Below, piece after piece: positions 1,024 through 63,410 of a stretch of 64,000 bases of DNA (positions within the stretch are counted from its first letter, which is position 1; the number at the start of each line of letters is the position of its first letter). The notes below the pieces were generated by a model that had not been told where the DNA came from, ran no database searches, and worked only from the letters and a program-made list of their open reading frames with translations. The stretch is from IMG/VR virus record IMGVR_UViG_3300046694_000202, positions 19,430-83,429 of that record. The stretch is one strand, 5' to 3'. Source of the DNA: a virus. A program made the translations under genes and the position numbers.

Positions 1024-1275
1024 TCAGGAGATGGTGCAGCCGTGGGTCTTCGAGTACGTGAAGACGCGCACCTTGCCCTTGTAGTCGACGTTCACGGTGT
1101 CAACACGTGAGCCGGTTTCTTCGCGGAAGTCGCGCAGCATCGATTCGATCTGCAGGGCCAGCAGCTTCACTGCGGTGCTCATCTCGCGCTCGGTGTACGG
1201 TGCGGCTTCAGCGGGCGGTGCAGCGAGTTCGGTGGACTCGACGGCTGCGTGTTCGTTGTTCGTGATTGCGTTCAT
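1024..1275 (-). CDS. Hypothetical protein
   Basis: 83-aa ORF with GGATCAAGACACC leader. Confidence 0.7.
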   Translation of the reverse strand: MNAITNNEHAAVESTELAAPPAEAAPYTEREMSTAVKLLALQIESMLRDFREETGSRVDTVNVDYKGKVRVFTYSKTHGCTIS

Positions 1276-1331
1276 GGTGTCTTGATCCAGTGAAAGTGCG
1301 ACAGTCGCACGTTGTGGTGGTGTTGAACTGC

Positions 1332-1790: not shown

Positions 1791-2071
1791 GCCGCCACCT
1801 GTTCGAACTGCTCGCCGAACACTTCAGCTTCTACGAGCTGATACGTGTAGCGCGGCCGGCCGTGGAAGTACTTCGTGTCGATGACGAGGCCGCATTGCTT
1901 GGCCAAGCGATCGATGATCTCTTCCGGGTGGTGCGAGCCGTGATAGTCCATGTGATGGAAGATCTGCTCTTCGAGCGCTGCGTGGAACGCGGCCTCGACG
2001 TAGGGTGCCCGGTCTTTCGCGTCGTCCATCATCTGCTCGAACGTTGCGAACGGGCCATGTGTGGTGGTCAT
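1787..2071 (-). CDS. Hypothetical protein
   Basis: 94-aa ORF with ACGGATCAA leader. Confidence 0.75.
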   Translation of the reverse strand: MTTTHGPFATFEQMMDDAKDRAPYVEAAFHAALEEQIFHHMDYHGSHHPEEIIDRLAKQCGLVIDTKYFHGRPRYTYQLVEAEVFGEQFEQVAA

Positions 2072-2120
2072 GGTGTGTTGATCCGTGAAGGTTGAAGGTT
2101 AAAAGTGCGACCGTCGCACT

Positions 2121-2318: not shown

Positions 2319-2328
2319 TGCATCTCCT

Positions 2329-3202: not shown

Positions 3203-3209
3203 GGCTCCC

Positions 3210-3849: not shown

Positions 3850-4171
3850 TGATACGGTCGACGATCGAGCGCTTCGATTCGAGGAACGATTTCATGTTGT
3901 CGAGCTGCTGCACATCGTGGCGCAGCTTGGTGTAGTCCGAGAGGAGTTCCCCGAACACTACCGACTGGCTCACAAGCACCAGCGCGAGCTTGTCAGCCGC
4001 AGAGGGTGAGAGTTCGATGCCCTCTTGCGTGAGTGCGCAGTGCTTGAGCAGCTTGGAGATGGAGCGCGGGATAGCAATGCCGTGTTCATGGCGTGTGGCT
4101 TCTTCACGGCTGGTGAAGGTGGCGCCGTCGCGCGTTTCGTAGGTCTCGATGACCTTGAGGGGTTTGTGCAT
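3833..4171 (-). CDS. Hypothetical protein, paralog 2
   Basis: MHKPLKVIETYETRDGATF...HEHGIAIP. Confidence 0.7.
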   Translation of the reverse strand: MHKPLKVIETYETRDGATFTSREEATRHEHGIAIPRSISKLLKHCALTQEGIELSPSAADKLALVLVSQSVVFGELLSDYTKLRHDVQQLDNMKSFLESKRSIVDRIIEDEA

Positions 4172-4257
4172 GGTCTTGATCCGTGAGATTAGAAGTGATG
4201 GTGGAAAGTGCGACGGTCGCACTTTCCACTTCGAAGCTCAGTGGTGGATGAGCTGTC

Positions 4258-4554
4258 TTACGCTGCTGCCTGTTCGTCGTGGTGCTTTTCGAGCGCGTCG
4301 ATCTGAGCCACGGTGTCGCGGGCTGCGATGTACTGATCGAGGAACGATCGCATCGCGTTCGGGTTCTGCAACATGGCGGTCACCAGCGGCTTGAGGCCGT
4401 CAGGGTTCAGCACCATGTTGTTGAGCGCTGCGTATGAGCCTTGGATCTGCTCGATGATCGCAGCCGGGATCGCCTTGGTCATCTCGTGGCGCAGGCCGTC
4501 TTTCTGCGTGTTGTGGTTGACGCCGTCACGCGATTGGTAGAGTTGTTTCAACAT
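4258..4554 (-). CDS. Hypothetical protein, paralog 3
   Basis: MLKQLYQSRDG...HEMTKAIP. Confidence 0.7.
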   Translation of the reverse strand: MLKQLYQSRDGVNHNTQKDGLRHEMTKAIPAAIIEQIQGSYAALNNMVLNPDGLKPLVTAMLQNPNAMRSFLDQYIAARDTVAQIDALEKHHDEQAAA

Positions 4555-4608
4555 GATGTTTGTTATCCGTTAGAGATTAGAGTTAGGTACAGCTCGAAGC
4601 TCACTGCA

Positions 4609-4785
4609 TCAGTGCGACTGTCGCACTTTTCGTTCGTCTTCCACTACGTTGACCGTCTGGCGCGGCCTATCTGTTGCCCACACGCGCAGGTCATTCGCGC
4701 GTATGAAATCGATGGCTTCATCGATTGTCTTGAACTCGCCGAATTCGTGGCCAGTTCGCTTGTGCTTCACGGTCCACGTGTTCAT
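4609..4785 (-). CDS. Hypothetical 58-aa protein (below ORF-track cutoff)
   Basis: MNTWTVKHKRTGHEFGEF...; ATGA overlap with the upstream gene. Confidence 0.6.
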   Translation of the reverse strand: MNTWTVKHKRTGHEFGEFKTIDEAIDFIRANDLRVWATDRPRQTVNVVEDERKVRQSH

Positions 4786-4970
4786 GCTGGGAACACCGCA
4801 AGCACGCTCTCCGGGAACAACAGCCGGCCACCCGAGAAGAAGATGATCCCGCTTCGTTCACCGATGCGGACGATCACATCCTGCTTCTCGACGCCGTAGT
4901 TGATGTAGCGCACGGTGTCGCCGACTTTGTACAGGTTGAGCGGGGGATTCGACTCGATCAGCTCGCTCAT
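4782..4970 (-). CDS. Small hypothetical protein (KVGDTV, KOW/SH3-like)
   Basis: 62-aa ORF coupled on both sides. Confidence 0.65.
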   Translation of the reverse strand: MSELIESNPPLNLYKVGDTVRYINYGVEKQDVIVRIGERSGIIFFSGGRLLFPESVLAVFPA

Positions 4971-5392
4971 GATGCGGCCTCGATCTTGACCTTCTGGAAG
5001 TCGTAGGGGTTGACCTGCACGAACATCACTTGATGGAACAGATCGGCGAGGTAGTCCTTGATCCCGTTGCGGTCAATGCCAGAGATCTTGAGAACCGCGC
5101 CATATTCGAGCGAGGGTGTGACCACGACTTGATGGTCTGTCCATCCGGCATACACGCCGTGCTCGTTCATGTGGTGAAACGACGTGTTGAACACGAGCTT
5201 GTTGCTCTTGCACTCGTCTTTCGCGAGCTTGACGCCCGCATCGAGGCCTGAACCAGAGGGCAAGTGCTCCTTGAGCATGGCGTCGAGGGTGTTGCGGTGG
5301 TGGTCGCGCCACTCGGTGTTGCCATCCGCGTCGCAGCGTTCGATGGTTGCCAGCAGCGATGCGATGGCTGAGTACAGCGGTACGGTGGTCAT
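4967..5392 (-). CDS. Conserved phage hypothetical protein (LPSGSGLD motif)
   Basis: 141-aa ORF, GGAG upstream. Confidence 0.8.
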   Translation of the reverse strand: MTTVPLYSAIASLLATIERCDADGNTEWRDHHRNTLDAMLKEHLPSGSGLDAGVKLAKDECKSNKLVFNTSFHHMNEHGVYAGWTDHQVVVTPSLEYGAVLKISGIDRNGIKDYLADLFHQVMFVQVNPYDFQKVKIEAAS

Positions 5393-5919
5393 GCGTCATG
5401 TCTCCGTGGTGGAAGGGTTTACCAGAGGCTCTACAACGGCCTCGTGCGGGCCTCTGGCTACGTGGGCCTATCCGAAGGCTCACGAGCGGCGTGGCGGTAC
5501 CGCAAATCAAGCGAGAAGTGCGACGGTCGCACTTTATGAGAGTGCGATTGCTGCGAGGCTGAGGAGAATGAGCACGCAGACGGCTCCGATTGCTCGATCC
5601 CAGCGATGCGCGGATTGCTGCTGTGCGGGCGTCAGGTGCAGGGTCACTCGCAGGTCGAGCGATGCGGAGCGTTGAGCGCGAGCACGAGCGCGGAGCGGGA
5701 GCTGGAGCGGCCACCTGATGGCGTCGAGCGCGGCCTCTACGTCGCGTAGCGATCGGAGGGCGTGACTAGGGCAGGAGCTGGAGCTAGAGCCGAGAGCAGG
5801 AGCTGAGAGCATGGTCGTGTTGTGTGGCGGTGTAGCTGTAGCGGCTTGCGTGGTGGTGGCCGCATTACGAAGGTGCAAGGATACCGGTTTCTTACGATCG
5901 GGATTCATGGTCGTGGTGG

Positions 5920-6350
5920 ATTTATCTGATAGAGAGGCCAAAACGCAACACGGGCCAGCGTGCAGCGTCCGCAGAGGGACAAGTAAAGGTTTCGTTTTTC
6001 CTTTTTTCTATTAAAAATTAAATATCTGATACTTGTTGCTCATGCATGAAAGAGAAATTCCTAATGCTTTCCTTGTCCCCTCTCTCTTTGATACTTCTTC
6101 TTCTTTTATTCTTTGAAAAGGAAGGAAGAAAGAAAGAATATAATATATAGCTAAGTACTTGATTTTAAAGGACTTTTGCCTCAACTATCTGATAGTTGAA
6201 ACGAGGAAAAATCCGCGCACGGCGCCCATTTTGGTTCCACTGTGGTCTCTTGGTGCCCCGCGAACCACCACTGTGGTACCGCGACGGTGCGGTCGGTTTA
6301 TCCACAATGTGGACAGCCGATGGTTACGCCCCCCACAAAATTCCACAATG
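5920..6350. promoter_or_regulatory. AT-rich non-coding block with IHF site, DnaA box and TATC-W-GATA palindromes (origin- or cos-like)
   Basis: AT-rich 5985-6200; IHF consensus WATCAANNNNTTR on the minus strand at 6152-6164; TTATCCACA 6298-6306; TCAACTATCTGATAGTTGA 6181-6199. Confidence 0.55.
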
Positions 6351-6448
6351 CGTAACGCATTTCACACTGTTGAACGCGCGCCGGCTACAGCTCCACCGCC
6401 GATTTCAACACGCACACAGTGCGGTTACCCACTAACCCGCACTAACTC

Positions 6449-6889
6449 TCACCGCGCCGGCTTCACACGCACGGAGCAGCCCCATGCCTCAGCCAACATC
6501 TCCACGCGCAGTACCCGCACCCGCTCCTGCGCCTTCTCCTGCTGCACGGCACGCTCCCGCGACCGGCTCAGACGCCGCTCCACATGCGTGCTAAAGCGCA
6601 CTGGTTCAGGCGCTGGAGCTGTAGCGGGTTCCGCGTCAGGACGCGCCCATTCCGGCATCTGTTCCAGAGTCGTGTCACCGCGCGCCAATGCACGGCGCAG
6701 CATGGCGATCTGGGCCTCGCGCGGCGTGAAGTTCTGCACGAGCTTCGGCTTGTCCAGCTGGTCCGTCTTGGGCGCATAAGCACGTGTCACAGACAGCGGC
6801 TTACGCCAGCGACCGGGGCCACGCTCCGGATCATCTTGCCCATACTCTTTCACGTACATCCACGAGAGCGCGCCCATCTTGGTCTCCAA
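6449..6889 (-). CDS. Hypothetical protein
   Basis: 146-aa ORF downstream of a palindrome copy; start uncertain (an internal ATG near 6877 follows GGAG). Confidence 0.55.
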   Translation of the reverse strand: METKMGALSWMYVKEYGQDDPERGPGRWRKPLSVTRAYAPKTDQLDKPKLVQNFTPREAQIAMLRRALARGDTTLEQMPEWARPDAEPATAPAPEPVRFSTHVERRLSRSRERAVQQEKAQERVRVLRVEMLAEAWGCSVRVKPAR

Positions 6890-7103
6890 TAAAGTGCGAC
6901 CGTCGCACTTTTCAAATAACGTCGCAAAAACGGATTATTAGACGCGCTACCACTCCAGCCGCTGCGTGAGAATTACGCGGCTGATAATGGCGCACGAGCA
7001 GACGCTGCCCCTGAAGCGGGAGCAGTTTTCATAATCGACCTCTTTAAATTTTGGTCCGATGAAGGGCCAAAATTTAAAGGGGCGCCTCTATAGGGGAAGC
7101 GCG

Positions 7104-7139
7104 AAAAGAACCAACCGGCGCGAGCCGGTCGGCTTTTTT
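7104..7139. terminator. Probable bidirectional intrinsic terminator
   Basis: AAAAGAA-CCAACCGGC-gcga-GCCGGTCGG-CTTTTT, downstream of the 7172-8035 gene. Confidence 0.65.
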
Positions 7140-7171
7140 AAAACGCGCCACTAGTGGCGCGCGCTAGGCGC

Positions 7172-8035
7172 TTACACTGCTACGGTTTCGGCCTTTGCCT
7201 TGCGCTTACCCTTCGGCGCGGATTGTGCGACCGTCGCACGTTCTGCTGCTGCTGCTGCCGCGCGTTCTGCGTCAGCCTTTTCCGCCTCTTCGCGCCGTGC
7301 GTTGCGTTCGATGCGTTCCTTGTTACCCTCAAGGAGTGCATACACCGTATCAAGCGGCAGCGTGTTCAGAACCGCGCTAGGCGCATACGGGAATAACTCC
7401 AGAATAAACGCTTCCGAGAATCGAACGCGTTCCTCATGCGGCAAAGCATCGAACGCGGCGCGCACATGTGCGACCAAGTCTGAACCCGTGCTAGGCGTAC
7501 CGTTCACGCCGACAGGGGTTTGGCGTTCCTCATCATCGGCGGGCGCTGCGGGCGCTGCGGGTTTCTTGGAGGGTTCCTTACCCTTGCTTTGCGCGAAATT
7601 GAAGTGCGCGAAAAGCGCTTCCTGAGTGTACAAATCGTTATCGGAAAAGAAACCTTTCACGAGTTCAATTGCCACCTCTTCAGATTCTGCCGCTTGCACG
7701 TCCGACAGATTCAAACCCTTTGCCGTCGCTTGCTTGCAGATACCCGTTCCTTTCTCCGCATAGCGCTTTGCCGTCGCTTGCGCCGCTTGCACTTTGGTCG
7801 CTTGCTCTTCGACCGTCAGGTTTTCCCAAGCGGCGCCAACGCGCGCCGCAGCAATGGAAACCTGCAAGCGGGGGATATTGTCCGATGCAAACCCGCGTTC
7901 CTCATATCCGCCAACGCGGGCGAATGCAGCGACCGTCGCGGCATATCCGCGCATAACAACAGACGATTCGCCCGCGACGATATGCGCGCCAACGAGTGCG
8001 GCAACTTCTTTCGAAACGATTTTCTTATCGGACAT
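7172..8035 (-). CDS. Hypothetical Ala/Glu/Lys-rich protein, first gene of the leftward early region
   Basis: 287-aa ORF with atypical codon usage, preceded by three palindrome copies. Confidence 0.75.
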   Translation of the reverse strand: MSDKKIVSKEVAALVGAHIVAGESSVVMRGYAATVAAFARVGGYEERGFASDNIPRLQVSIAAARVGAAWENLTVEEQATKVQAAQATAKRYAEKGTGICKQATAKGLNLSDVQAAESEEVAIELVKGFFSDNDLYTQEALFAHFNFAQSKGKEPSKKPAAPAAPADDEERQTPVGVNGTPSTGSDLVAHVRAAFDALPHEERVRFSEAFILELFPYAPSAVLNTLPLDTVYALLEGNKERIERNARREEAEKADAERAAAAAAERATVAQSAPKGKRKAKAETVAV

Positions 8036-8306
8036 TTTGAACCCCTATCGATTGGTACGCTTTGGTACCGATTAGTTAAAAGTGCGACCGTCGCACTTTC
8101 CGTCGCGCTTAGTGCGACCGTCGCACTTTGCGCACACGCTATGTGCGACGTCGCACATGGCGCGCGAACCCAACGAGCGCACGCGCCCCTTGGCCCCGCC
8201 TCCAGCCCTACACCTGCATCCATCTCCCACGTACACAGGATACCACACTTTAATAGGCTGTGCGGGGCACGCCGTGGGATGGCTGTCAAGACCTTCTTTT
8301 GAATTT

Positions 8307-8370: not shown

Positions 8371-8739
8371 ATGATCCACACCGACTCCAGCCTGCAGATC
8401 CTGCGGGCCATCACCACCGGCCGCGACCGCTTCACAGTCAGCACCGAAGACCTAACCGCCTACTTCCGCACCAACCCCCGCGAGTGGTTCGGGCGCAGCT
8501 ACACCGCCCTCACCCTCGCCGACATCGTGGTGCCGATCGGCAAGCGGGGCCACGGCCTGTTCTCGAACCTGATCCTCGAAACCGAATTCGTCGCCCAGGC
8601 CTGCCGCTTCGAGGCGGTCCTCATCGAGAACGCCCGCGACAGCCTCGTGAAGCCGCTCACGAAGCGCGGCTACATGCTCCGCACCCGCGGCTATCTCCTC
8701 GCCGGAGGCGGAATCGATTTGCTCAAGGAGATCAAGTAA
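8371..8739 (+). CDS. GNAT-like acetyltransferase
   Basis: Acetyl-CoA-binding motif A-like LADIVVP-x2-KRGHGLFSNLI and C-terminal LxKRGY. Confidence 0.5.
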   Translation: MIHTDSSLQILRAITTGRDRFTVSTEDLTAYFRTNPREWFGRSYTALTLADIVVPIGKRGHGLFSNLILETEFVAQACRFEAVLIENARDSLVKPLTKRGYMLRTRGYLLAGGGIDLLKEIK

Positions 8740-9302
8740 TGCCCATGAAACCCCTGCCCCGAGATGAGTTCACTGTCGCAATGGCGCGCGAGTGGTTCGC
8801 CTATGACTCCAGCGCCGGCTGCGTCATCCGAATCAAGAATCCAAAGAGGGGAAAGAAGACTGCGGGAGAGAGAGCTGGGTGTCTGCACAAAGCCTCGGGA
8901 TTCTTCCGAGTGGCCTTCCAAGGCCTCAACGTCTATGAGCACCACCTAGTCTGGGCACTCTGCAAGGGGTACTGGTCTCCTTTCCCTCTGAGACACAGAG
9001 ATGACAACCCGACAAATAACCGTATCGAGAATCTGGTTGAAGATACAAATGCCGGAATTGGTTACAACGAGTTACAAACTCCTTCCGATTCTTACCCAGA
9101 ATCAATGTCTGGAGTGGTCGCTGTAAAGAGCGGGAGATTCAGGGCACAAATTTTCAGAGAAAAATTAAGGTACCTTGGTACCTACGACACCCCTGCGGAG
9201 GCCCACGCAGCTTACGTTCGGGCCAAACAAGTACTCCACAGTCCTCTTAATGTTGGGAAACCAACTGAAGAACTGCTCTCTCAGCTGTTGAATGTTTCAT
9301 AA
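8739..9302 (+). CDS. HNH homing endonuclease with AP2-like DNA-binding C-terminus
   Basis: HHLVW...HRDDNPTNNRIENL; C-terminal FRAQI...YLGTYDTPAEAHAAY; lower GC than flanks. Confidence 0.85.
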   Translation: MPMKPLPRDEFTVAMAREWFAYDSSAGCVIRIKNPKRGKKTAGERAGCLHKASGFFRVAFQGLNVYEHHLVWALCKGYWSPFPLRHRDDNPTNNRIENLVEDTNAGIGYNELQTPSDSYPESMSGVVAVKSGRFRAQIFREKLRYLGTYDTPAEAHAAYVRAKQVLHSPLNVGKPTEELLSQLLNVS

Positions 9303-9377
9303 GCTTCATATGAGACTGACATTTCAGTGTTGAGTGTTGTCAAATTGCTAACAAGAGAGAGATTTGGCAGTTGAGAG

Positions 9378-9406
9378 TTGCTAACACAAAGTTGAGTGTG
9401 TATATT
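9378..9406 (+). promoter_or_regulatory. sigma70-type promoter for the candidate sRNA
   Basis: TTGCTA-17 nt-TATATT; no sizeable ORF before the next terminator. Confidence 0.6.
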
Positions 9407-9412
9407 TCGCAT

Positions 9413-9580
9413 CAATGCTTCGTGATCTGTGGTGGTGAGCGAAGCGCCTTGCAGCGGCCTCTAGGTCCACAAGGTCAAGATAGAAAGGTGGCCAGCCTGA
9501 CTATCGGTCCCGATCCAGGGATATGTTTTGATCCGTAGAAGTGATAAAAGCCCCGATGACTAGCTATCATCGGGGCTTTT
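9413..9580 (+). ncRNA. Candidate ~165-nt phage small RNA
   Basis: Bounded by a promoter and an intrinsic terminator; 5' hairpin GCTTCG/CGAAGC enclosing TGTGGTGGTGA; complementary to phage leaders (see findings). Confidence 0.45.
9546..9580. terminator. Bidirectional intrinsic terminator
   Basis: AAAAGCCCCGATGA-ctagcta-TCATCGGGGCTTTT between convergent units. Confidence 0.9.
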
Positions 9581-9628
9581 CCCATTCCAACTGTCAATAG
9601 TCTCGCTCTTTGTTGAATATTTGTAGAG

Positions 9629-12148
9629 CTAGACGGTGCTCAGCTGCTCTCCAGAAGGGGCTGCTTTCGTATTCGACGACCCCGTCACGCCCGCAAGAAT
9701 GAGATTTTCGTAGGTTATCTCCTGTCCCCCCATCTCCGTGCCTCTGATTGAAAGCTTGAATCCGAACTCTGTAGCCAGCTCCCGCATCTTGGCTCTGAAC
9801 TGAGTCGATCCAACAGGCCTGGCACTGCCCGGTCCTACGCAGAAGGACCAATATGCCTGATAGAGCTTCACCTCCTGAACTGAGGTGAGGGTTGAAGTCT
9901 TCGCGCCAGCGGACGACGGATTTTGGAGAGGGGCTATCCGCACCTTGCCGCTCTCCATCAGAAAAAAACGTACAGAATTGTTCAGATTCGCCACTTCACG
10001 CATTGTTTGCGCGTGCGACGCGGGAATCGTGTACTCGTTGCGCGCCCGCAGCCGGGGCATCGACTGCACCGCCCAAGCAACGATCGCTTCGCGCTCCTCA
10101 ACCACGATCACATCACCGAGATCGAGCCTGCGCTCACTGGCCTTCACCGGACGGTTAAATTGGAGCACCAACCATCGACGGTTAAATCCCTCGGATGTGT
10201 CCTCAGTCCTCGGATAATGGTTCGATGCGAACCAATGCGTGCAGACGGGGGAGAAACGGAAGATCTGTCCACCCTTCAGCTGCCCTGACATCTCAGCTCC
10301 GTCGATGATGTCCTTGAATCTTTGGCCATCCACAGCCTTCTTTTCAGAAAGCTCACCCGCGACGTTGATGATTTTCTCGAACATTTGGGTCGGCAGGAAC
10401 TTGTCTGCCCACTCATTAGGCGGCACCGCTGCCCGAGCTGAGTCCGGAACCAGCGCTTGAGCGATCTTCAGCAGCTGTGATTTCCCAGATTTTGGGGCAC
10501 CTTGCAGCAAAATCGCACGTTGATAGCGAGGTCCGAGGCCGAAAAGCGTGACCGCGAGGGCTTCCTGCAGAGCTGCGATCTTCTCCTCGCAGTCGTCATC
10601 ATCACCCCAACTTTTCCGCAGAAACTCGAAAAACATGTCACTTTTACCCGCAGTTTCGGGCAAATACCGGAACGGCAGCGTGTAAGTCATGCCATAACCG
10701 GAGTCGTGCGGCAGCAATTTCAGGTCTTCCGTGAGGAAACCATTGGCGAAATTCACGCCTTTCACGTCGATCGTCTTGATGCCTTGGGTCAACAGCATCC
10801 GCATGACCGCGTAGACACCCTTCATGTCGTTGAACTTCTTGCACGCAGCCAGATGGCCGTAGTCGGAGCTGATCTTCGACAGGATGAACTGGTCGTCGAC
10901 CTTGTCCCAGTGTGACCCCGCCCACTTCCAGATGAAGCCATTGTGGGCACGGATGGCATACAGCGCCTCCAGATCCTTGATCGCCGCGCGTGCGATCTCC
11001 GACTGGTCCTGGCCCTTGATGTCGCCCATGCGCAGCTCTTTCACGCGCGAGCGCAACGTCCCCACCTTCACGCCCATACCACCCGAGAGCGCGATGAACT
11101 CAAGCAACCGGTCCTCTTCGAGCTTATTGAGGTTCGACGTGGTCGCCACCTTGAAGAGCGCCTTGTCGATCGCAGCCGCGCGCTGCGGGCTGTCCTTCGG
11201 GAAGCGCTCGAACTCGTCGATCAGGAACGACTTCAAGTCCTCGAACGTGGCCTCTTCCTGCTCTTTCGAAAACTCAAGACCATAGGCCTTCTTGTCTTCA
11301 TCGGTCAGGCCCTCGTCCCAGCCAGTCGGCAACACCTTCGCCTTCTCAAACACGTCACGCTGCAGGAACTTGAGCATGTTGCGCACGTGCTTGTCGATAT
11401 CGATCGGGTCTCCCGCGACGTTCTCGACGAAGTCCGCGGCGTAGGCCTGCAGCATCCCGATCGCTTCCTTCACGCTCCGATCGCCGCGCATCACCGCGTA
11501 CGCGAAGAGGCCCGCGCGCTCGGTCAGCGACGTGTCGCGCGAACCAGCGGATGCGTAATCGACCACGCGCGTCCAACCCGAGTGCGACAGCTCGACGCCG
11601 GCCTCGGTGAGCGCCGCGCGCAACATCGCCTCGATGTTGTCATCGAGCGGCACCAGATTCTTGTGAACGTCCACCAGATCGCAGTTCGCCAGATACGGCT
11701 GCATCGTGTCGGGGTGGATCGAGGGCGGCAGCACGGACTGCGTGCGCGCGGAGAGCATTTCGCAGATCGTCTGGCCGCTCGTGTTCTTGATCCGGAACGT
11801 CTTCAGGCCCGAGTAGCGGTAAGCGAGCATGAAGCCCTTCTTGCCGACGCGGCGCCACGGCGAGCGCGGCAGCAGCTGCTCGATGACGTTCATCAGCTTC
11901 ACGTCTTCCGTGTCGATGTCCATCATCACGATGCCGGACTGCGGCCCGAGCACGATGCCGATGTTCCCGTCGCGGCACGACTCAATCCACTGTGCCTGCT
12001 GCTCGGGTTCGACCGGATGATCGAAATAGCGCGACCAGTCGTTCGGGACTGGCTTCTTTTCCATCGGATAAAGCGGGATCACTGGCAGGCCCGCCGCGTA
12101 ATAGCGCGGCGCTGTCAGTGCAAAGATAGGTTGGCGTTCGGCTTTCAT
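9629..12148 (-). CDS. Bifunctional primase-polymerase fused to D5-like SF3 helicase
   Basis: N-terminal Prim-Pol (VIPL..KKP, NIGIVLG, DID, PPSIHP), PriCT-like GSRD, Walker A GAPKSGKS, Walker B region INVAGEL, motif C ASNHYP, RRW. Confidence 0.9.
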   Translation of the reverse strand: MKAERQPIFALTAPRYYAAGLPVIPLYPMEKKPVPNDWSRYFDHPVEPEQQAQWIESCRDGNIGIVLGPQSGIVMMDIDTEDVKLMNVIEQLLPRSPWRRVGKKGFMLAYRYSGLKTFRIKNTSGQTICEMLSARTQSVLPPSIHPDTMQPYLANCDLVDVHKNLVPLDDNIEAMLRAALTEAGVELSHSGWTRVVDYASAGSRDTSLTERAGLFAYAVMRGDRSVKEAIGMLQAYAADFVENVAGDPIDIDKHVRNMLKFLQRDVFEKAKVLPTGWDEGLTDEDKKAYGLEFSKEQEEATFEDLKSFLIDEFERFPKDSPQRAAAIDKALFKVATTSNLNKLEEDRLLEFIALSGGMGVKVGTLRSRVKELRMGDIKGQDQSEIARAAIKDLEALYAIRAHNGFIWKWAGSHWDKVDDQFILSKISSDYGHLAACKKFNDMKGVYAVMRMLLTQGIKTIDVKGVNFANGFLTEDLKLLPHDSGYGMTYTLPFRYLPETAGKSDMFFEFLRKSWGDDDDCEEKIAALQEALAVTLFGLGPRYQRAILLQGAPKSGKSQLLKIAQALVPDSARAAVPPNEWADKFLPTQMFEKIINVAGELSEKKAVDGQRFKDIIDGAEMSGQLKGGQIFRFSPVCTHWFASNHYPRTEDTSEGFNRRWLVLQFNRPVKASERRLDLGDVIVVEEREAIVAWAVQSMPRLRARNEYTIPASHAQTMREVANLNNSVRFFLMESGKVRIAPLQNPSSAGAKTSTLTSVQEVKLYQAYWSFCVGPGSARPVGSTQFRAKMRELATEFGFKLSIRGTEMGGQEITYENLILAGVTGSSNTKAAPSGEQLSTV

Positions 12149-12690
12149 GCGTTTTCGTCGGTGGTGGTAGCAGTCGCGCCATCGTCGGACATGTCCTGAC
12201 GGGCCAGGGCGCTTCTAAGTCGATCCATTACCTCGGTGCGCTGGTCAGGCGTCATCGAGTCCTCCATGATCGCGAGCACGGTGTCCTGGAAGCCCTTGAT
12301 CTGCTTGACTCCCAGTGCTCGCTCTCGCGCCGTCACAAGCCGTTCGAGAAGACTGGTCGCCGTGCGGAAATACGCCATGCGCTCAGTTTGATCCGACTTC
12401 CCGATCGTCTTGCCATAATCTTTCAGCTCTTGAAACACGCCGTATAGATCCTCAGCCAGCGTGTTGTCGATCTCATCCTCTGAAATCGGGGATGACTCTG
12501 TATTTTCCTGCTTGTTCTCGCTCGTATCGAGCCTCATCCAGATCGAGTCCTGGATCAACTTCTTGAGTTGATCGTCATAAGGACAATCCGGACTCTTAAG
12601 GTAATTGCTGTCCTCACGAGCCAACGTGACGACTGTCTTGAAGGCCCACTGCGCGTGGTCCGTGATATCCGGATAGTGGTACTCGCTCAT
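12145..12690 (-). CDS. Hypothetical helical protein (possible terminase small subunit)
   Basis: 181 aa, AGAGG RBS, divergent from the large terminase and coupled to the primase. Confidence 0.6.
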   Translation of the reverse strand: MSEYHYPDITDHAQWAFKTVVTLAREDSNYLKSPDCPYDDQLKKLIQDSIWMRLDTSENKQENTESSPISEDEIDNTLAEDLYGVFQELKDYGKTIGKSDQTERMAYFRTATSLLERLVTARERALGVKQIKGFQDTVLAIMEDSMTPDQRTEVMDRLRSALARQDMSDDGATATTTDENA

Positions 12691-16252: not shown

Positions 16253-16293
16253 ACGGGCTACTTAAACCAGCCCGTCTCAACAGCACCACCACC

Positions 16294-17427
16294 ATGCCGA
16301 AGAGCGTAGTCATCACACCGAGGATTCAAGCCCTCATCGCCCAGAACAACGGCGGGGAGTCGGTCGATCTGAATTCGATCGGGGTGTTCGAGGCGTCGGT
16401 GCTGAACACGCGCGCGCTGTCGAAGCCGGGATCGATTTTCGACAAGGGTCAAGTGAGCGTTGCGACGCTCAACGAGATGGCGACGTACCTGAATAGCGGT
16501 GGATTCGTCCCGCTCCAGACGTTGCACCCGATGGGTGACGAGCTGCCGATCGGCCGCTTCTTCCACGGCCAAGTCATGCCGTCCACGCTCGGCGACGGTT
16601 CGAGCGAGCTGGTTTGCCTCTTCTACCTGCCGAAGTCCGATGCGAACTTCGAGAAGCTGGATCAGGGAATCATCGACGAAGTCAGCGTCGGTGTTGTGGC
16701 TCAGCACCTGAACTGCTCCCAGTGCAACTGGGATTTCATGGGCGCGGACGCGACCACTGAGAACTTCTGGGACCGCACGTGCGCCAACGGCCACGTGCTC
16801 GGCGTCGACGGCGTCCACCTTGCCCTCAACGGCCTCGACCGCTGGACGGAAACGTCGCTGGTCTCGAAGGGCGCCGCGAACAACGCAAAGATTCTGGGGC
16901 GCGCGAAGCAGCGCCTTGGACAAGAGCAGTACGACCGCTTGGCAGCTTCGGGCGTTGCACCCGAGCAGAAAATGTTGATTGCCACCACCACAGATACCCC
17001 TCGGAGCCTGAAGATGGACAAGGAATTGAAAGAACTGATCGAGCAAGCCGCCGAACTCAAGGCCGATGCAAAGCATCACGGCCTCGTGCTGACGGCCAAG
17101 GACACGGAAATCACCGCGCTCAAGGCATCGGTCGAAGCGAAGGACGCAGAGATCGCCACGCTCAAGGCTGGCACGGAGCTGGCAGCAGCGACCGCCCAGC
17201 TGGCTGCAGTTCAAGGTCAAGTCACCACGCTGACCGAAGCAAAAGACACCGCCGAAACCGCGCTGACAGCTGCACAAGCTGAACTCGCGACGGCTCAAGC
17301 GCAGATCGCAACGCTGCAAGCAGGCGCCGGCAACGGTGGCAAGGCTCAAGGCGCGGCGAATGCAGACGTGAAGCTCGGACAAGCCTCGCCGTCGTCGGCG
17401 TTCAAGGCTGCACCGCGCGCACGCTAA
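16294..17427 (+). CDS. Prohead protease/scaffold fusion
   Basis: N-terminal H...PIGR...EVSVG...ETSLV (herpes/HK97-type protease pattern) plus Ala-rich coiled-coil C-terminus. Confidence 0.75.
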   Translation: MPKSVVITPRIQALIAQNNGGESVDLNSIGVFEASVLNTRALSKPGSIFDKGQVSVATLNEMATYLNSGGFVPLQTLHPMGDELPIGRFFHGQVMPSTLGDGSSELVCLFYLPKSDANFEKLDQGIIDEVSVGVVAQHLNCSQCNWDFMGADATTENFWDRTCANGHVLGVDGVHLALNGLDRWTETSLVSKGAANNAKILGRAKQRLGQEQYDRLAASGVAPEQKMLIATTTDTPRSLKMDKELKELIEQAAELKADAKHHGLVLTAKDTEITALKASVEAKDAEIATLKAGTELAAATAQLAAVQGQVTTLTEAKDTAETALTAAQAELATAQAQIATLQAGAGNGGKAQGAANADVKLGQASPSSAFKAAPRAR

Positions 17428-17853: not shown

Positions 17854-17924
17854 AGAAGCTCCGCAGCCCTGTCCACCACCAGGGCTGTTGAGCGGTTTCA
17901 CAACACCACCACACGGATCAGAAC

Positions 17925-19112
17925 ATGCCCGATTTGATTGATATCAAGCGCGAAGCGCCTGAAGCAGTCCTCAGCAACCTGCGTCCCGCAGATGCTTCGG
18001 ACCAAGGCAAGTCGGTGGATGCAGGCAAGCGCCTCATCCGCCTCGCTGCCGACGCAGGCCTCGGTCTGCGCGACTACCTCACGCTGGCGATCGACCCGCG
18101 TAAGGCCGCGGAACCCGCTCGCTACGATGGCCTCAACGGCTACGAAGCAGCTCTCTCGTACCTGAACCTCCCGGTTCGTACGGACCTCGAAAACGGCGTG
18201 CTGCTGCAAGCTGCATCGGAAACGTTCCAAACGTATCCGGGCACGCGTGCGATGTTCCCGGAAGTGATGGACGACGTGCTGCGCTGGCGCAACCGTCAGG
18301 ACCAGCTCGAACAAGTCGCTCCGCTGCTCGCGCAATCGCGCACGATCAACGGCACCGAGATGATCTCGACGTTCGTCGACGACGACTCGGCAGAGCGCAC
18401 GACGCACTCCGTCGCTGAATTCGGCCGCGTGCCGGTTCGCACGATCCGCACGTCGCAACAAACCGTGGGCATCTTCAAGCACGGCTCGGGCTACCGTACC
18501 TCGTACGAGTTCAACCGCCGCGCTTCGCTCGACATCATGACGCCGTTCGCGTCGCGTGTCGGTCGCGAGCTGGAAATCTCGAAGGTCCGCGCAGCAACCA
18601 GCATCCTGATCAACGGTGACGGCGTCAACGCTGCAGCTCCGGTGGTCGGCGTGTCGGCATTCGGCGGCAATCAAGCCAACGCGTTCTCGACGAACTACAA
18701 GGCTTTGGCCAAGTGGCTCATGAAGCGCGCGAAGGACGGCTACCCGATCGACACGATCGCAGGCAACTACGACATGTTCGTGGAACTGCTGTTCATGTTC
18801 CAGCCGGTCACGAACCTCGGCTCGAACACGGACATCGAAGCGATGGTTGCGCACGGCACGCCGAAGATCAACACGTCGCTGCCGATCCTCAACAAGTCGG
18901 TGAACTTCGTGCTGTCGAGCGGCGTCCCGGCTGGTCAGCTGATCGGCTTCACGAAGGGCGAAACGCTGGAAGAGCTGGTCGAAGCTGGTTCGAACATCGC
19001 TGAAAACGAGCGCTCGATCATCAACCAGTCCATCACCTACGTGCGTACCGAGAACACGGGCTACAAGCTCGCGTTTGGCGACACGCGTCAGATCCTGGAC
19101 ACCACGGCCTAA
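17925..19112 (+). CDS. Major capsid protein
   Basis: 395 aa, strong codon bias, HK97-like VAEFGRVP...KHG pattern, followed by a terminator. Confidence 0.85.
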   Translation: MPDLIDIKREAPEAVLSNLRPADASDQGKSVDAGKRLIRLAADAGLGLRDYLTLAIDPRKAAEPARYDGLNGYEAALSYLNLPVRTDLENGVLLQAASETFQTYPGTRAMFPEVMDDVLRWRNRQDQLEQVAPLLAQSRTINGTEMISTFVDDDSAERTTHSVAEFGRVPVRTIRTSQQTVGIFKHGSGYRTSYEFNRRASLDIMTPFASRVGRELEISKVRAATSILINGDGVNAAAPVVGVSAFGGNQANAFSTNYKALAKWLMKRAKDGYPIDTIAGNYDMFVELLFMFQPVTNLGSNTDIEAMVAHGTPKINTSLPILNKSVNFVLSSGVPAGQLIGFTKGETLEELVEAGSNIAENERSIINQSITYVRTENTGYKLAFGDTRQILDTTA

Positions 19113-41201: not shown

Positions 41202-42559
41202 CAACCTTCGTTCTCAAGACGCTCGACGCTAACAACGTCGAGCGTCGGTTTTTCTACAACAACATGCGCAGCACGCTGGTCGAGGCACAGACCGGCCGCT
41301 CGGTGATTCCGACTCGAGCCGCAGACACCCCGCAAAGCCCCGCCCAGCAAGACTTCCGCAAATCGAAAACGATCCGGACGCTGAAGATCCAGCTCGGTCT
41401 CTCGTGTAATTACAGCTGCGATTACTGCTCGCAGCGCTTCGTGCCGCACGACGAGCCGACTGGCCCCTACTCCGTCGACCACTTCATCTCGCGCTTGAGC
41501 TGGAACGCCTCGCTCGCCGACGATGCCACGATCGAGTTCTGGGGTGGCGAGCCGCTGGTCTACTGGAAGACGCTGGTCCCGCTGGTCGAGCAGCTGCGCA
41601 TCCGCTACCCCGCGCTCACGTTCCGCATGATCACGAACGGCTCGCTGCTGGACCCGATGAAGGCGAGCTGGCTGATCACGAACGGCTTCCACATCGGCAT
41701 CAGCCACGACGGTCCTGGCCAGCACGTGCGCGGCCCCGATCCGCTCGATGATCCGGAGAAGCGCGAGGCGATCCTCATGCTGTACCGGCGCCTGCGTCCG
41801 CTCGGCCGTATCAGTTTCAACGCGATGCTGCACTCGCAAAATACGTCGCGCGCGGCGATCCAGCAGTTCTTCGTGAAGCTCACGGGCGACGAGGAAGTGC
41901 CGGTCGGTGAAGGCATGTTCGTCGATGCCTACGATGAAGGTGGCCGGGGCATGTCTTTCCTTGACGCCGCGGATCACGTCGAATATCGTCGCAAGGCGTT
42001 CACCGAGCTGAAGTCTGGGCTGGCCCTCAACTTCGGATCGGTGACCGAAAAGATTCACGACTTTGCAGAGTCAGTCGCCACGGGTCGGCCGGCGTCTACC
42101 GTAGGGCAGAAGTGCGGTTCCGATCGCGCGGACACCCTCACGGTGACACTGACAGGCGACGTTCTCACTTGCCAAAACGTCTCGGCTGTTTCCGTTGCCC
42201 CGAACGGGAAGAGCCACCGCGCTGGCAATTGGGACGAAATGGATCAGGTGCGGGTCGCCTCCTCGCGCCACTGGTCGACTCGTGAGCACTGTTCGAGCTG
42301 CCCGGTCGTGCAATTGTGCAAGGGCAGCTGCATGTTCCTCGAAGGCGATCTCTGGAATGTCACGTGCGATACGGCCTACAGCGATAACGTCGTGTTCCTC
42401 GCGACCGCCCTTCTGGAGCTGACCGGCTGCACCCTGCAACGCATCGAGCCGATGACTGGCTCGTTGCCTGAGCACCGCCAGGACGTTTTCACGCCACTGG
42501 CGAAAAAGAGCGGGACCACCACCCCGCGCAAAATCATACGGATCAACACGGAAAAGTAA
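41198..42559 (+). CDS. Radical SAM enzyme with SPASM domain
   Basis: CNYSCDYC (CxxxCxxC), FWGGEPL, ITNG, ISHDG; SPASM cysteines C...GDVLTC and CSSCPVVQLCKGSC...C. Confidence 0.93.
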   Translation: MTTFVLKTLDANNVERRFFYNNMRSTLVEAQTGRSVIPTRAADTPQSPAQQDFRKSKTIRTLKIQLGLSCNYSCDYCSQRFVPHDEPTGPYSVDHFISRLSWNASLADDATIEFWGGEPLVYWKTLVPLVEQLRIRYPALTFRMITNGSLLDPMKASWLITNGFHIGISHDGPGQHVRGPDPLDDPEKREAILMLYRRLRPLGRISFNAMLHSQNTSRAAIQQFFVKLTGDEEVPVGEGMFVDAYDEGGRGMSFLDAADHVEYRRKAFTELKSGLALNFGSVTEKIHDFAESVATGRPASTVGQKCGSDRADTLTVTLTGDVLTCQNVSAVSVAPNGKSHRAGNWDEMDQVRVASSRHWSTREHCSSCPVVQLCKGSCMFLEGDLWNVTCDTAYSDNVVFLATALLELTGCTLQRIEPMTGSLPEHRQDVFTPLAKKSGTTTPRKIIRINTEK

Positions 42560-43094: not shown

Positions 43095-43127
43095 TTGGGC
43101 CACTCACCACCACAACGAGTGCCCACG

Positions 43128-43661
43128 ATGTCAATCACATCCGACCAACTTCGGCAGATCTGGAGAAACGCTTCGGCCACGCGCTGCGAGAAGTTTGCTC
43201 CCCTCCTGTCCGATGCGATGGCGCGCTTCGGTATCGATACGAACGAAGAGATCGTCTACTTCCTCGCGCAAGTCTCACACGAGTCTGGCGAAGCCCAATG
43301 GCTGGAAGAGCTGGCATCAGGCAAGGCGTACGAGGGCCGCAAGGATCTCGGCAATACGCAGCCCGGTGACGGTGTTCGTTACAAGGGCCGAGGCCTCATC
43401 CAATGTACGGGCCGGACGAACTATCAGCTGATGGGGATGATGCTCGACCTCGATCTGATCTCGAACCCCGAGCAGCTGTGTGAGCCGAAGAACGCTGTCG
43501 ATAGCGCTGCCGCCTTCTGGTGGAACCACAAGCTCGACAACATCGCGCTCAAGAAAGACTTCGTCGCTGTGACGAAGGTCATCAACGGTGGCACCAACGG
43601 TCTGGCCGACCGGCAGTTGTATCTGTCGCGCGCTCGGGCAGCGATCCCGGAGGCGGCATAA
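43128..43661 (+). CDS. Endolysin, glycoside hydrolase family 19
   Basis: FLAQVSHESG, YKGRGLIQCTGRTNY, INGGTNGLADR. Confidence 0.92.
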   Translation: MSITSDQLRQIWRNASATRCEKFAPLLSDAMARFGIDTNEEIVYFLAQVSHESGEAQWLEELASGKAYEGRKDLGNTQPGDGVRYKGRGLIQCTGRTNYQLMGMMLDLDLISNPEQLCEPKNAVDSAAAFWWNHKLDNIALKKDFVAVTKVINGGTNGLADRQLYLSRARAAIPEAA

Positions 43662-44434: not shown

Positions 44435-44444
44435 AGGATTCTAA

Positions 44445-48940: not shown

Positions 48941-48979
48941 GTAACCTTCCTTCTTTCCACCACAGAAGGAGAAGGAGAC

Positions 48980-58079: not shown

Positions 58080-58121
58080 CAGCTTCAGGGACGGTGGTGG
58101 ACGCCCCTGCCAGTTCGTGTT

Positions 58122-58697
58122 TTATGAGTTGCGTGCGTCAAGCCCGCCCTTGTCTGCTCGTCCTTCAGCAGCCGCGTTCGTGTACTTCTCCGGGAAACGC
58201 TTCTGAAGCTTGTCGATGTTCTCGACCATGAGATCTTCGATCGCAAAGCCAAGCGCATCACAAGCGTGGGAGACCGAACAAACGATGTTGAGCAGGCCGC
58301 GCATAATGGATTCTCTGCTGCGGGCGTCATGAAGCAGCGGAGCTTGGAAGGCAATGAAGCCGACTTCCATCGTGATCCGGCAGGCGACCATGTTCAACTG
58401 GGTGGGAGTGTCGAACGACTCGTAGTCTTCGAACAGGTATTGATATTCGGGGATATCGCAGTCGATAGCATCCGCAGCGATGGCGACGTACCAGAGAAGA
58501 TCGCCAAGCTCTTCGCGCATGTGACCGATGAACTCCACCGAGATGGGCTTTTCATAGATCGCGATACGCTTGACCGTCGTGGTGAACTCACCGTTCTCAG
58601 TGGCCAGACCGAGGATTGCGTGGTTCAGACGAAGGTGCGTCGAGGGCAGCGGCTTCTCCGTTCGCAATGCGAGCGGTTTGTATTGCTGGAAGTTCAT
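58122..58697 (-). CDS. MazG-like nucleotide pyrophosphohydrolase
   Basis: LGLATENGE...EELGDLLWY...NIDKLQKRFP. Confidence 0.85.
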   Translation of the reverse strand: MNFQQYKPLALRTEKPLPSTHLRLNHAILGLATENGEFTTTVKRIAIYEKPISVEFIGHMREELGDLLWYVAIAADAIDCDIPEYQYLFEDYESFDTPTQLNMVACRITMEVGFIAFQAPLLHDARSRESIMRGLLNIVCSVSHACDALGFAIEDLMVENIDKLQKRFPEKYTNAAAEGRADKGGLDARNS

Positions 58698-58719
58698 GGT
58701 TTCAATCGTTGTGGTGGTG

Positions 58720-59064
58720 TTAATACGTCTCGGGAGGCGCTGTGAACCACAGTCGCCTACCCTTCCCCTCGCCGGGGAACGCATACTGGATCAGGAATCC
58801 CTGATCCTTCTTTTGCATCATGGTTACTTGACCGCGGTCGTGCTGTATGCGGGCTGAGTACAAGATGCTCTGATCCCTTTCGTGCCATCTCCAATCGCTT
58901 GGCAATCGACGCGCCAGGATGTATGCGTAAAGCTTTGGGTCGCCCCAGTGGAGGAGATCAAGTTCCTTCATCTCTTCCACTACACGCTCCACGGTGGTGG
59001 CGAGGAGCGTGGCGATATACGGGGGCGAGCAGTTCTGATCCAGGAGTGATTTTATTGTTTCCAT
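58720..59064 (-). CDS. Hypothetical protein (N-terminal HTH-like)
   Basis: 114-aa ORF, GAGGA RBS. Confidence 0.65.
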   Translation of the reverse strand: METIKSLLDQNCSPPYIATLLATTVERVVEEMKELDLLHWGDPKLYAYILARRLPSDWRWHERDQSILYSARIQHDRGQVTMMQKKDQGFLIQYAFPGEGKGRRLWFTAPPETY

Positions 59065-62853: not shown

Positions 62854-63307
62854 GTTGTTGCTTGGCCAGAAGTAGAAGTGGGGCAAACAGTGGGTTGTTC
62901 AAGATTCGGTGGTGGTCGATCTCGGCCCACTTCATCGACTTTGCGTCATGGTCGATGATGTGTACTGCGTGAATCACATACCACTCGCCGGTTGATTCCC
63001 GACGAATGAAAAACTGATAATCCCCGCCAGCTGCAACAGCTTTGCGCGCGGCTCGCCACTGGTTCTTCGAGATCATGCTGAAGGAAAACGACGGCTCGTT
63101 TGCCGTGCTCTTCACTTCCGCGTAGAACATGCGACCTTCCCACGTGACGACGAAGTCAGCGGGTTGTGCGTCCTTGATTGATTTCTTGAGACCTGTGGCT
63201 CCGCGCACGTAGGCGGTATCGGTCAGGCGCTCTACTGCTGCGCGCTTCCCGAATCGCGCGAAGAAGAGTTCAAACTCATCCTCCGCGTCCTTCCAGACGT
63301 GCTTCAT
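62801..63307 (-). CDS. RecU-like Holliday junction resolvase (PD-(D/E)XK)
   Basis: PADF...YAEVKST...NQ...AAGG. Confidence 0.7.
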   Translation of the reverse strand: MKHVWKDAEDEFELFFARFGKRAAVERLTDTAYVRGATGLKKSIKDAQPADFVVTWEGRMFYAEVKSTANEPSFSFSMISKNQWRAARKAVAAGGDYQFFIRRESTGEWYVIHAVHIIDHDAKSMKWAEIDHHRILNNPLFAPLLLLAKQQHDDQVSRLHDRSGNDGH

Positions 63308-63410
63308 GTTCGACTACTTTACCGGTGGTGGTGGCGTGAAAAGAATTATATGTAAGACCGAACCTTTAGGGTTCGGTGTTGTAAAAATAATTCTTTAAAC
63401 GTAATATTTC

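Follow-up and report, generated by a model that had tools for sequence, protein, structure and literature searches.

Comparative sequence evidence for a structured small RNA with two conserved seeds facing many translation start regions of a Burkholderia-type phage

The stretch of DNA considered here (the window) comprises 64,000 nucleotides (nt), bases 19430-83429 of an 83,429-bp IMG/VR virus record (IMGVR_UViG_3300046694_000202) that carries direct terminal repeats and represents a Burkholderia-type phage of 83 kb; the genome of the window is labelled G000 below. A short locus in it sits between two convergent genes, an HNH_3 endonuclease gene upstream (8484..9302, + strand) and a primase-polymerase/D5-type gene (9629..12148, - strand), the open reading frame (ORF) of which ends at 9629. 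A preliminary description, made from the sequence alone, had placed between these genes a small RNA (sRNA) with its own promoter and terminator, and with two short seeds complementary to the translation start regions of many phage genes. All 15 of the coordinates and strings that it quoted were found in the window, and comparison with related phages now predicts that the locus encodes an independent, conserved, structured and non-coding RNA of approximately 170 nt (9413-9582) on the + strand. With regard to the proposal of a two-seed, trans-acting RNA facing many start regions, every part that could be examined in silico came out in its favor.

Transcription of the RNA would be driven by a sigma-70-like promoter, TTGCTA-17-TATATT, which lies at 9378..9406 on the + strand as described earlier (9/12 match), and the predicted 5' end of the RNA (9413..9582, +) was placed by reference to its -10 box. 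A promoter scan of the window alone was not above chance (2 promoter-like sites vs 0.9 +/- 1.0 in shuffles). An equivalent site, matching at 8-9 of 12 positions, was present 8-11 nt 5' of hairpin 1 in 13/13 homologues, and the spacer and the surrounding sequences diverge. A 178-nt stretch covering the RNA folded with a z score of -3.45, none of 200 shuffles being equally stable. Reading 5' to 3' along the + strand, hairpin 1 (9416..9446) has an 8-bp covarying stem, with GC, CG and AU swaps and 100% of cells paired, and a loop of 15-16 nt. This loop presents seed 1, GAUCUGUGGUGGUGAG (9424..9439), which is invariant in 12/12 aligned homologues and complementary both to leaders containing CACCACCAC(A) and to the CCACCAC loops of hairpins. 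Hairpin 2 (9447..9474), of variable sequence, is followed by hairpin 3 (9479..9505; 6/10 pairs changed on both sides), which has the invariant tip GGUGGCCAGC at 9487-9496, and by hairpin 4 (9507..9522; GUCCC/GGGAU, 4/5 pairs changed on both sides). Seed 2, AUGUUUUGAUCCGUAGAAGUGAU (9523..9545), is predicted to be single-stranded; its 3' part is lineage-specific and its core, GUUUUGAUC (9525-9533), is conserved, being invariant save for one U-to-C change in the L007/G005 lineage. The RNA ends in a terminator hairpin (9547..9582; 7/13 pairs changed on both sides), the UAGCUA loop of which is conserved and which is followed by a U tail. Its 14-bp, G+C-rich stem (9547-9578) is followed by UUUU, which upholds the earlier claim of a strong terminator; the tail has 4 U in the window and 5-8 U in most relatives, and the hairpin was absent from a simple terminator scan because the window copy has merely four. 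Read on the opposite strand, the same terminator hairpin comes after the primase gene.

The two remaining conserved loops contain palindromic hexamers, UGGCCA in the hairpin-3 tip (9487-9496) and UAGCUA in the terminator loop (9560-9566), and the palindrome GAUC is present in both seeds; judging from these sequences, dimerization of the RNA by self-pairing, or a protein partner, is possible. Neither the hairpin-3 tip nor the UAGCUA loop had a clear partner among the start regions.

Syntenic homologues were found 3' of the primase gene in IMG/VR, full-length at 11 loci and truncated at 2 (77-88% identity of the primase), as well as in a prophage of Burkholderia paludis MSh1 (primase 79%); the RNA was not found at the more distant loci L014, L015 and L019. 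A covariance model recovered the full-length RNA, at 120-178 bits, from 13 sources. A MAFFT alignment of 12 copies, built without any structure input, showed loop 1 (16 nt), GUGGCCAGC and GUUU(U/C)GAUC to be invariant, while the stems change. In the RNAalifold structure derived for these copies, 95.9% of 467 cells pair, compared to 80.3% in column shuffles (0/500) and 36-50% when the partners were slid by 1-3 columns, and 20 of the 39 tested pairs have changed on both sides. The segment between hairpins 1 and 3, although poorly alignable, formed a hairpin in 12/12 homologues (-8.9 to -13.3 kcal/mol) from unrelated sequences. G-U cells numbered 67 and A-C cells 4, and the RNA was therefore assigned to the + strand, on which pairing was 95.9% compared to 82.4% on the - strand. 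The predicted architecture is that of a trans-acting, base-pairing sRNA of the Hfq type: a promoter, a terminator hairpin with a U tail, the absence of a conserved ORF, and exposed seeds that are conserved while the structural parts vary by compensatory change.

The earlier statement that the locus holds no real ORF requires qualification, in that a 55-amino acid ORF with a TTG start (9371..9538, +) and a 44-amino acid ORF (9281..9415, -) do exist; however, the 13 homologues share no ORF with respect to place, frame or length. With neither conservation nor a Pfam hit, both were rejected as small proteins. At the gathering score, no Rfam family matched anywhere in the 64-kb window, and a search of 9250-9700 at E <= 10 returned seven weak hits, the best at 22.1 bits vs a cut-off of 45 and none of them C4. 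ARAGORN found 0 tRNA or tmRNA genes in the window, and blastn of 9300-9630 gave no match in phage or plasmid collections. The exact 22-mer of hairpin 1 was without a match in IMG/VR because the stems differ among homologues, and a pattern combining loop 1 with the hairpin-3 tip retrieved from IMG/VR the same 11 contigs as had been reached through the primase gene, and no others. A looser pattern recovered 32 stretches from JGI metagenomes, which were dismissed as chance; 0/32 matched the covariance model at E <= 1e-6, and by eye they were devoid of GAUC, the hairpins and seed 2. Following this check, the family remains at 12 IMG/VR contigs and one GTDB genome. An apparent second copy of the sRNA in B. 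paludis (20 bits) was likewise rejected, as it is the antisense strand of the capsid leader, i.e., a target.

The two seeds were compared with the start regions of the phage, taken as -45..+10 of each called gene, using shuffled seeds, dinucleotide-shuffled leaders and coding-sense windows as controls; G000 provided 109 start regions, with 150 shuffles per control. At <= -13 kcal/mol, seed 2 matched 17 of the 109 start regions, compared to 3.0 for shuffled seeds and 4.7 for shuffled leaders (0/150 each). Seed 1 is G-rich and sticky; the mean of its 10 best matches in G000 was -19.6 kcal/mol, compared to -16.9 and -17.2 in the two controls (0/150 and 1/150). At <= -18, it matched 10-18 start regions per genome in 6/6 genomes (G000 to G005), against 2-3 in shuffles, the observed count being reached in each genome by no more than 1/50 seed shuffles and by 0/50 leader shuffles; in G000, 10/109 start regions matched at this level compared to 16/600 coding-sense windows. 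Seed 2 at <= -14 was enriched in 4/6 genomes. Complementarity thus exceeded that of the shuffled controls for seed 2 at -13 and for the strongest matches of seed 1, but not for seed 1 at -13. Along the RNA, matches to start regions concentrate on loop 1 and seed 2, with a weak accumulation at the hairpin-3 tip (5/5 genomes examined), and in the five strongest seed-2 matches with a secure start, the site ends at -2 to +2 relative to the AUG.

The hairpin-3 tip was considered as a third seed, with a raised count at -11 (61 vs 33.5 and 42.5), but it failed when its best-10 mean was reached by 16/150 and 36/150 shuffles. A control employing the complement of the seed, not reversed, proved invalid since CACCACCAC reads identically backwards. 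A Chi-like role of GTGGTGG at the DNA level was dropped, as the motif adjoins GGAUCAAAAC-AUG on the sense strand and sits in the loops of RNA hairpins.

The leader of the major head protein gene (assigned by PHROG), ACACCACCACACGGAUCAGAACAUG (17903..17927, +), carries predicted targets of both seeds side by side, as had been described, with duplexes of -22.9 kcal/mol for seed 1 and -20.5 kcal/mol for seed 2, the latter spanning -13..+2. Upstream of it, a hairpin with the loop UCCACCAC (17863..17888, +) forms a further seed-1 target, the loop of which is kept in 5/6 genomes on stems that differ. A leader of the form GCACCACCACC-AUG (16283..16296, +; -17.5) precedes a 377-amino acid gene of the head region; its earlier label as a protease could not be sustained, its PHROG family having unknown function. 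The start region of the endolysin gene (PHROG) contains a hairpin with the loop ACCACCACAAC (43097..43130, +), 12/12 complementary to seed 1, that ends 3 nt before the AUG (43128). This hairpin is kept in 5/6 genomes, i.e., those having the gene, with its loop retained on changing stems, and ends 2-5 nt 5' of the AUG. Ahead of a 91-amino acid gene that precedes the lysis genes, a CCACCAC-loop hairpin is accompanied by the seed-2 site AUCAUACGGAUCAACACGG (42510..42551, +), and the parA leader (48947..48971, +) folds into a hairpin with the loop UUCCACCAC and a 3' arm containing the word AGAAGGAG. Several of the complementary seed-1 sites, among them the endolysin and parA sites and the one 5' of the capsid gene, form the loops of hairpins instead of linear tracts, which amends the earlier description of seed-1 sites as leaders. 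The endolysin gene was also observed to be without a Shine-Dalgarno (SD) word, its AUG (43128) standing directly after the conserved hairpin (orthologues in G001, G002, G004 and G005), and the endolysin orthologue of the Achromobacter phages JWF and 2-1 to have GGAG and a GTG start.

On the - strand, the leader ACACCACCACAACGAUUGAAACC-AUG of a MazG-like gene (58695..58720; PHROG) gives -20.3 kcal/mol with seed 1 and has its motif kept in 4/4 orthologues of the clade, and a hairpin with the loop UCCACCAC (58086..58109) stands ahead of a thymidylate-synthase-like gene (PHROG). Three early-gene leaders on this strand are predicted targets of seed 2: AUCACUUCUAAUCUCACGGAUCAAGACC-AUG (4169..4199; -19.9), which fits both the core and the 3' part, UUCACGGAUCAACACACC-AUG (2069..2089; -16.4), and a leader composed of ACACCACCACAACG, a 15-nt palindrome and CUGGAUCAAGACACC-AUG (1273..1323; -16.5). 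A seed-1 site also occurs in the leader CGCCACCACCACC...AUG (63305..63336, -) of a 168-amino acid ORF that was missed by the gene caller. The small early target genes belong to no PHROG family. Ten copies of the palindrome (AAA)GTGCGAC-N-GTCGCAC(TTT) were noted in the minus-strand early region only (window 1296-8126, and genome position 15747 upstream of the window), several of them standing between a CACCACCACAACG word and a GGAUCAAGAC leader; by their sequence, they look like operator sites or small RNA hairpins.

Directly 5' of the primase start, 21-22 nt complementary to loop 1 and the hairpin-1 3' arm were found in three relatives, L004 (2268-2288), L005 (1953-1974) and L010 (3972-3992); the primase leader of the window (12146-12170) has CUACCACCACC alone. 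In G003 (L074), the capsid leader (at approximately 10280-10331 of the record) has AAAAGGAAAGAACAUC-AUG in place of GGAUCAAAAC and is without the upstream CCACCAC hairpin, and no endolysin orthologue was found by tblastn; this RNA-bearing genome shows that targets may disappear within the clade.

Many of the seed-1 targets thus take the form stem-(U)CCACCAC-stem, in which the 7-8 nt loop belongs to a small hairpin of variable stem. Each RNA-bearing genome has 5-12 CCACCAC-loop hairpins with stems of 5 bp or more, compared to 0.3-0.8 for the other 20 permutations of the 7-mer, and 3-6 of them lie 5' of starts on the sense strand vs 0 in four outgroups. The predicted probability of CCACCAC being unpaired is 0.86 in leaders compared to 0.69 in coding sense. 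As a loop would here face a complementary loop, seed 1 may meet the CCACCAC loops by loop-loop kissing as the first contact.

The covariation of seeds and leaders anticipated among relatives was indeed found. The 3' tail of seed 2 reads GAUCCGUAGAAGUGAU in the window, GAUCCAUUGUAGAAGCU in G001 and G004, GAUCAAUGUUAGCUGUU in G002, GAUCCUUGGUAGUUUCU in G003 and GAUCCAGCAGUGCCUG in G005, and the leaders track these tails, with CACAAUGGAUCAAAC-AUG (capsid) and ACUUCUUCAAUGGAUCAAUC-AUG in G004, UAAACUGGCUAAGGAUCAAAAUC-AUG in G003 and AAACAGCUAACAUU in G002. In the capsid leaders, the predicted pairings are CACGGAUC with GAUCCGU (G000), CACAAUGGAUC with GAUCCAUUGUG (G004), and GGAUCGAAAC with GUUUCGAUCC (G005). 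When the variable 18 nt of seed 2 were scored against the start regions of every genome, the own genome gave the best value for 4/5 distinct variants (-17.6 vs -12.6 to -16.1 for G000; -16.8/-18.3 vs -13.3 to -13.9 for G001/G004). The U-to-C change in the seed-2 core of G005 is mirrored in its leaders, as the strict leaders read GGAUCG in 3/3 cases in G005 and GGAUCA in 17/20 elsewhere, a split with a chance of approximately 0.006 by our own arithmetic. Among orthologous leaders, the words are retained and the flanks diverge.

The RNA and the leader words also occur together. Four named relatives are without the RNA, JWF and 2-1 (primase 68-69% identical to that of the window phage), Xylophilus phage Lumi (54%) and Caulobacter phage Seuss (45%), all similar in G+C content (57-61%). 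The whole records of JWF, Lumi and Seuss gave no match to the RNA model, and the sole match in phage 2-1 was a terminator-like one of 21 bits. These four genomes have 2-4 start regions matching seed 1, which is the level of shuffles; leaders bearing CACCACC number 1-2 in them vs 8-16 in the RNA-bearing genomes, and CACCACCAC occurs 3-6 times per genome vs 14-30. Their capsid and endolysin leaders have AGGAA or GGAG where the RNA-bearing clade has GGAUCAAAAC or the hairpin. Within the RNA-bearing clade, an SD-like word is found in 14-33% of the motif leaders compared to 42-57% of the other genes.

Taken together, these observations are best accommodated by a trans-acting antisense RNA which, through a kissing loop and a linear seed, probably covers approximately 10-20 phage start regions and lowers their translation; its transcription, the pairing itself, repression as the outcome and a role in the carrier state or immunity are matters that we infer from sequence. 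Under this proposal, the RNA would be transcribed from its own promoter by host RNA polymerase and ended by the intrinsic terminator, and its covarying hairpin scaffold would present the two invariant recognition elements. The seed-1 loop GAUCUGUGGUGGUGAG would pair with the C/A-rich CACCACCAC tracts of leaders and kiss the CCACCAC loops of the small hairpins located upstream of, or on, start regions. Seed 2, a single strand of (A)UGUUUUGAUCC and the lineage-specific tail, would pair with the GGAUCAAAAC(AUG) word that appears to stand in for the normal SD region; since it would cover about -20 to +2, it should block the 30S subunit. Approximately 10-20 messenger RNAs (mRNAs) carry one or both words, including those for the major head protein, endolysin, nucleotide metabolism and many small early genes, and these would therefore be held down together. 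The most likely use would be to silence leaky lytic and early messages during carriage and perhaps also to act against incoming relatives, in which case the variable seed-2 tail would set the specificity. The promoter looks host-type, and so the RNA should exist in the carried state. Targets synthesized at a lower rate than an sRNA are silenced by it but, once induced, overwhelm it, and such kinetics would fit the silencing of leaky lytic messages.

The covariation of tail and leaders would, by analogy with c4 of P1 and P7, look like a determinant of immunity specificity, which raises the further and decidedly tentative notion of an RNA immunity system, an analogue in RNA of a repressor and its operators. 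Approximately 10-20 genes would have exchanged the SD region for a cassette of a CCACCAC tract or loop and GGAUCAAAAC-AUG, locked simultaneously by one RNA through its kissing loop and linear seed, with the rapidly evolving seed-2 tail and the leaders defining heteroimmune groups of related phage-plasmids. A resident copy would then silence its own leaky messages and the lytic messages of incoming phages of the same group, but not those of other groups.

A number of points weigh against repression by leader pairing. Among the 6 runs found, no RNA run containing the locus was listed. In G000, the count of seed-1 matches at -13 equaled that of the shuffles (36 vs 33 and 35), and seed 2 at <= -14 was not significant in G003 (count reached by 3/50 and 6/50 shuffles) or G005 (6/50 and 4/50). 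The cut-offs applied to the six genomes (<= -18 for seed 1 and <= -14 for seed 2) were set after the first G000 result, and gene starts were taken from a simple heuristic codon-usage caller that placed some of them wrongly (the endolysin start at 43218, which should be 43128). The G+C-rich tail of G005 has no preference for its own genome. Moreover, the RNA-bearing and RNA-free phages form two clades, and their pattern of co-occurrence therefore counts as a single evolutionary event. Recombination could keep the repeated leader modules and their inverted copy in the RNA gene alike, and the weak second match to the model in B. paludis is the antisense of a capsid leader. A constitutive repressor of capsid and endolysin needs an escape route for lytic growth, and none has been identified. 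Finally, pairing at hairpin targets such as that of endolysin could open the hairpin and activate translation.

Four other explanations were weighed. That the same pairing has an opposite or mixed outcome was judged rather unlikely; here, the RNA would activate or time translation or processing and be needed for late expression instead of silencing, by opening start-region hairpins (as DsrA does at rpoS), by creating RNase III sites or by altering termination at the CCACCAC hairpins. The endolysin leader would suit such a role, given that its AUG follows a conserved hairpin at a distance of 3 nt without any SD word and that seed 1 would engage the loop plus 3 nt of the 5' arm and thereby release the 3' arm. 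The scarcity of SD-like words among motif leaders means that they may need help with translation, and lytic growth demands high expression of capsid and endolysin. However, the seed-2 sites occupy the 15-20 nt immediately 5' of the AUG and in some cases include the AUG, which is the classic position for occlusion, and the early-gene leaders are unstructured C/A-rich stretches that offer nothing to open. It also appears improbable that a genuine RNA serves some purpose other than leader pairing, such as protein binding, pairing with host mRNAs, dimerization via the palindromic loops, or a role in replication next to primase. In that case, the complementarity would be left over from a leader module that was duplicated in inverted orientation, with recombination among the repeats keeping the copies alike. 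This would account for the invariant GGUGGCCAGC tip and UAGCUA loop having no clear partner, for the weak score of the capsid-leader antisense against the RNA model, and for the lack of specificity of the G005 tail. Yet a relic would not remain invariant over 16 nt while its flanking stems change by compensation; further, the enrichment of the motifs is confined to the sense strand of start regions, the motifs are absent from relatives without the RNA, and the seed-2 tail tracks the leaders of its own genome in 4/5 variants.

The position of the locus between two convergent genes, a promoter that does not stand out in a scan and a terminator that is bidirectional by sequence could be those of a structured 3' untranslated region and terminator shared by the HNH and primase genes, with no independent RNA. 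This is considered very unlikely in view of the promoter-like site at a fixed distance in 13/13 homologues despite diverging surroundings; in the L008 group, this site and the end of the HNH ORF overlap. A terminator would also need far fewer than four conserved hairpins with invariant loops, and even an RNA derived from a 3' untranslated region could act likewise. Lastly, an HNH_3 gene is found immediately 5' of the RNA in all homologous loci (8484-9302 in the window; see also L086, 5612-7023), and the RNA might be a partner or guide of this endonuclease; such a function is scarcely credible. No match to HEARO, to the omega RNA of the IscB type or to any other Rfam family was found, and the neighboring protein is a small enzyme of the HNH_3 homing type with this as the sole domain found. 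Two HNH genes stand at the equivalent place in JWF and 2-1 without such an RNA, and a guide of this kind would find matches at 10 or more places in the genome of the phage itself.

The closest known systems to the proposed antisense RNA are the c4, CI and CA immunity RNAs of P1, P4 and N15. With c4 of P1 and P7, changes in seed and target define the specificity of immunity between relatives. Like the RNA proposed here, c4 pairs through more than one exposed element and blocks genes of the lytic pathway, as a second layer beside a protein repressor. However, c4 is cut from the operon that it controls and acts on one downstream message (icd-ant), whereas the RNA described here possesses a promoter and a terminator of its own, faces the next gene in convergent orientation, and has matches over approximately 10-20 leaders across 83 kb, many of which are hairpin loops; the Rfam C4 covariance model gave no match to it. 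A further likeness is that c4 (Rfam C4, with its kin P4 CI and N15 CA) is, as the present RNA would be, a small structured RNA of a phage able to live as a plasmid (PMC8198154).

Trans-acting phage sRNAs are also known, viz. VpdS of vibriophage VP882 and PreS of lambda, both of which are Hfq-dependent (PMC12197685). As outlined in that source, each is phage-encoded in its own transcription unit and pairs with several mRNAs via short seeds, and VpdS affects phage messages as well (PMC12197685). In the portions of that account consulted, they are described chiefly through host targets and competition for Hfq, and a leader word common to the phage's own genes is not described for them (PMC12197685); their sequences are unrelated to the present RNA. 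The prophage RNAs STnc6030 (Salmonella prophage BTP1), sar (P22), and OOP and aQ (lambda) base-pair with messages of phage genes, a structural one in the case of STnc6030, and they are summarized there as limiting lytic development or superinfection by relatives (PMC12197685). In the same summary, these are encoded in cis and are fully complementary to one overlapping gene (PMC12197685), unlike the RNA here, which would act via 7-20 nt matches at distant sites. Opposite the latter, only unconserved ORFs of 25-65 amino acids were found, none common to the 13 homologues, and L016 has none of at least 25 amino acids.

With phage T4, a short word is present in many early start regions and is recognized by the protein repressor RegA or the nuclease RegB. 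The likeness is that many start regions share a recognition word through which one factor shuts them down together; the factor there is a protein, whereas in the present phage an RNA would play this part and the word takes the place of the SD region. In CopA/CopT of R1, RNAI/RNAII of ColE1 and OxyS-fhlA, loop-loop complementarity of 6-8 nt likewise provides the first contact, and OxyS and fhlA meet at two separate sites. Each of these kissing systems has one target, whereas 5-12 hairpins per genome share the loop here.

A literature search, mostly at the level of abstracts, returned no sRNA in JWF-like or Burkholderia phages and no leader cassette shared among phage genes, and the RNA family was in none of the databases searched. 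Three features are new: a leader cassette common to the whole proposed regulon, targets in the form of hairpin loops, and a specificity tail that co-evolves with the leaders. The phage antisense RNAs known so far are directed at single genes or operons. If the proposed pairing is correct, a whole set of early, nucleotide-metabolism, head and lysis genes of this phage would have had their start regions remodeled to respond to one RNA, the specificity-determining part of which co-evolves with the leaders, and the phage would provide an example of a compact post-transcriptional regulon in a virus. The RNA would then become a candidate for what determines the immunity groups of Burkholderia phage-plasmids, and would represent a two-site design of natural origin, comprising a kissing loop and a linear seed. 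As a cultured carrier, B. paludis MSh1, exists, the proposal is directly testable.

One further observation concerns a distant part of the window. At 44415-48755, a 1436-amino acid ORF on the + strand, which is the frame picked by the codon-usage caller, is overlain by an open frame of 1430 amino acids on the - strand; the latter is probably the usual shadow of a G+C-rich gene.

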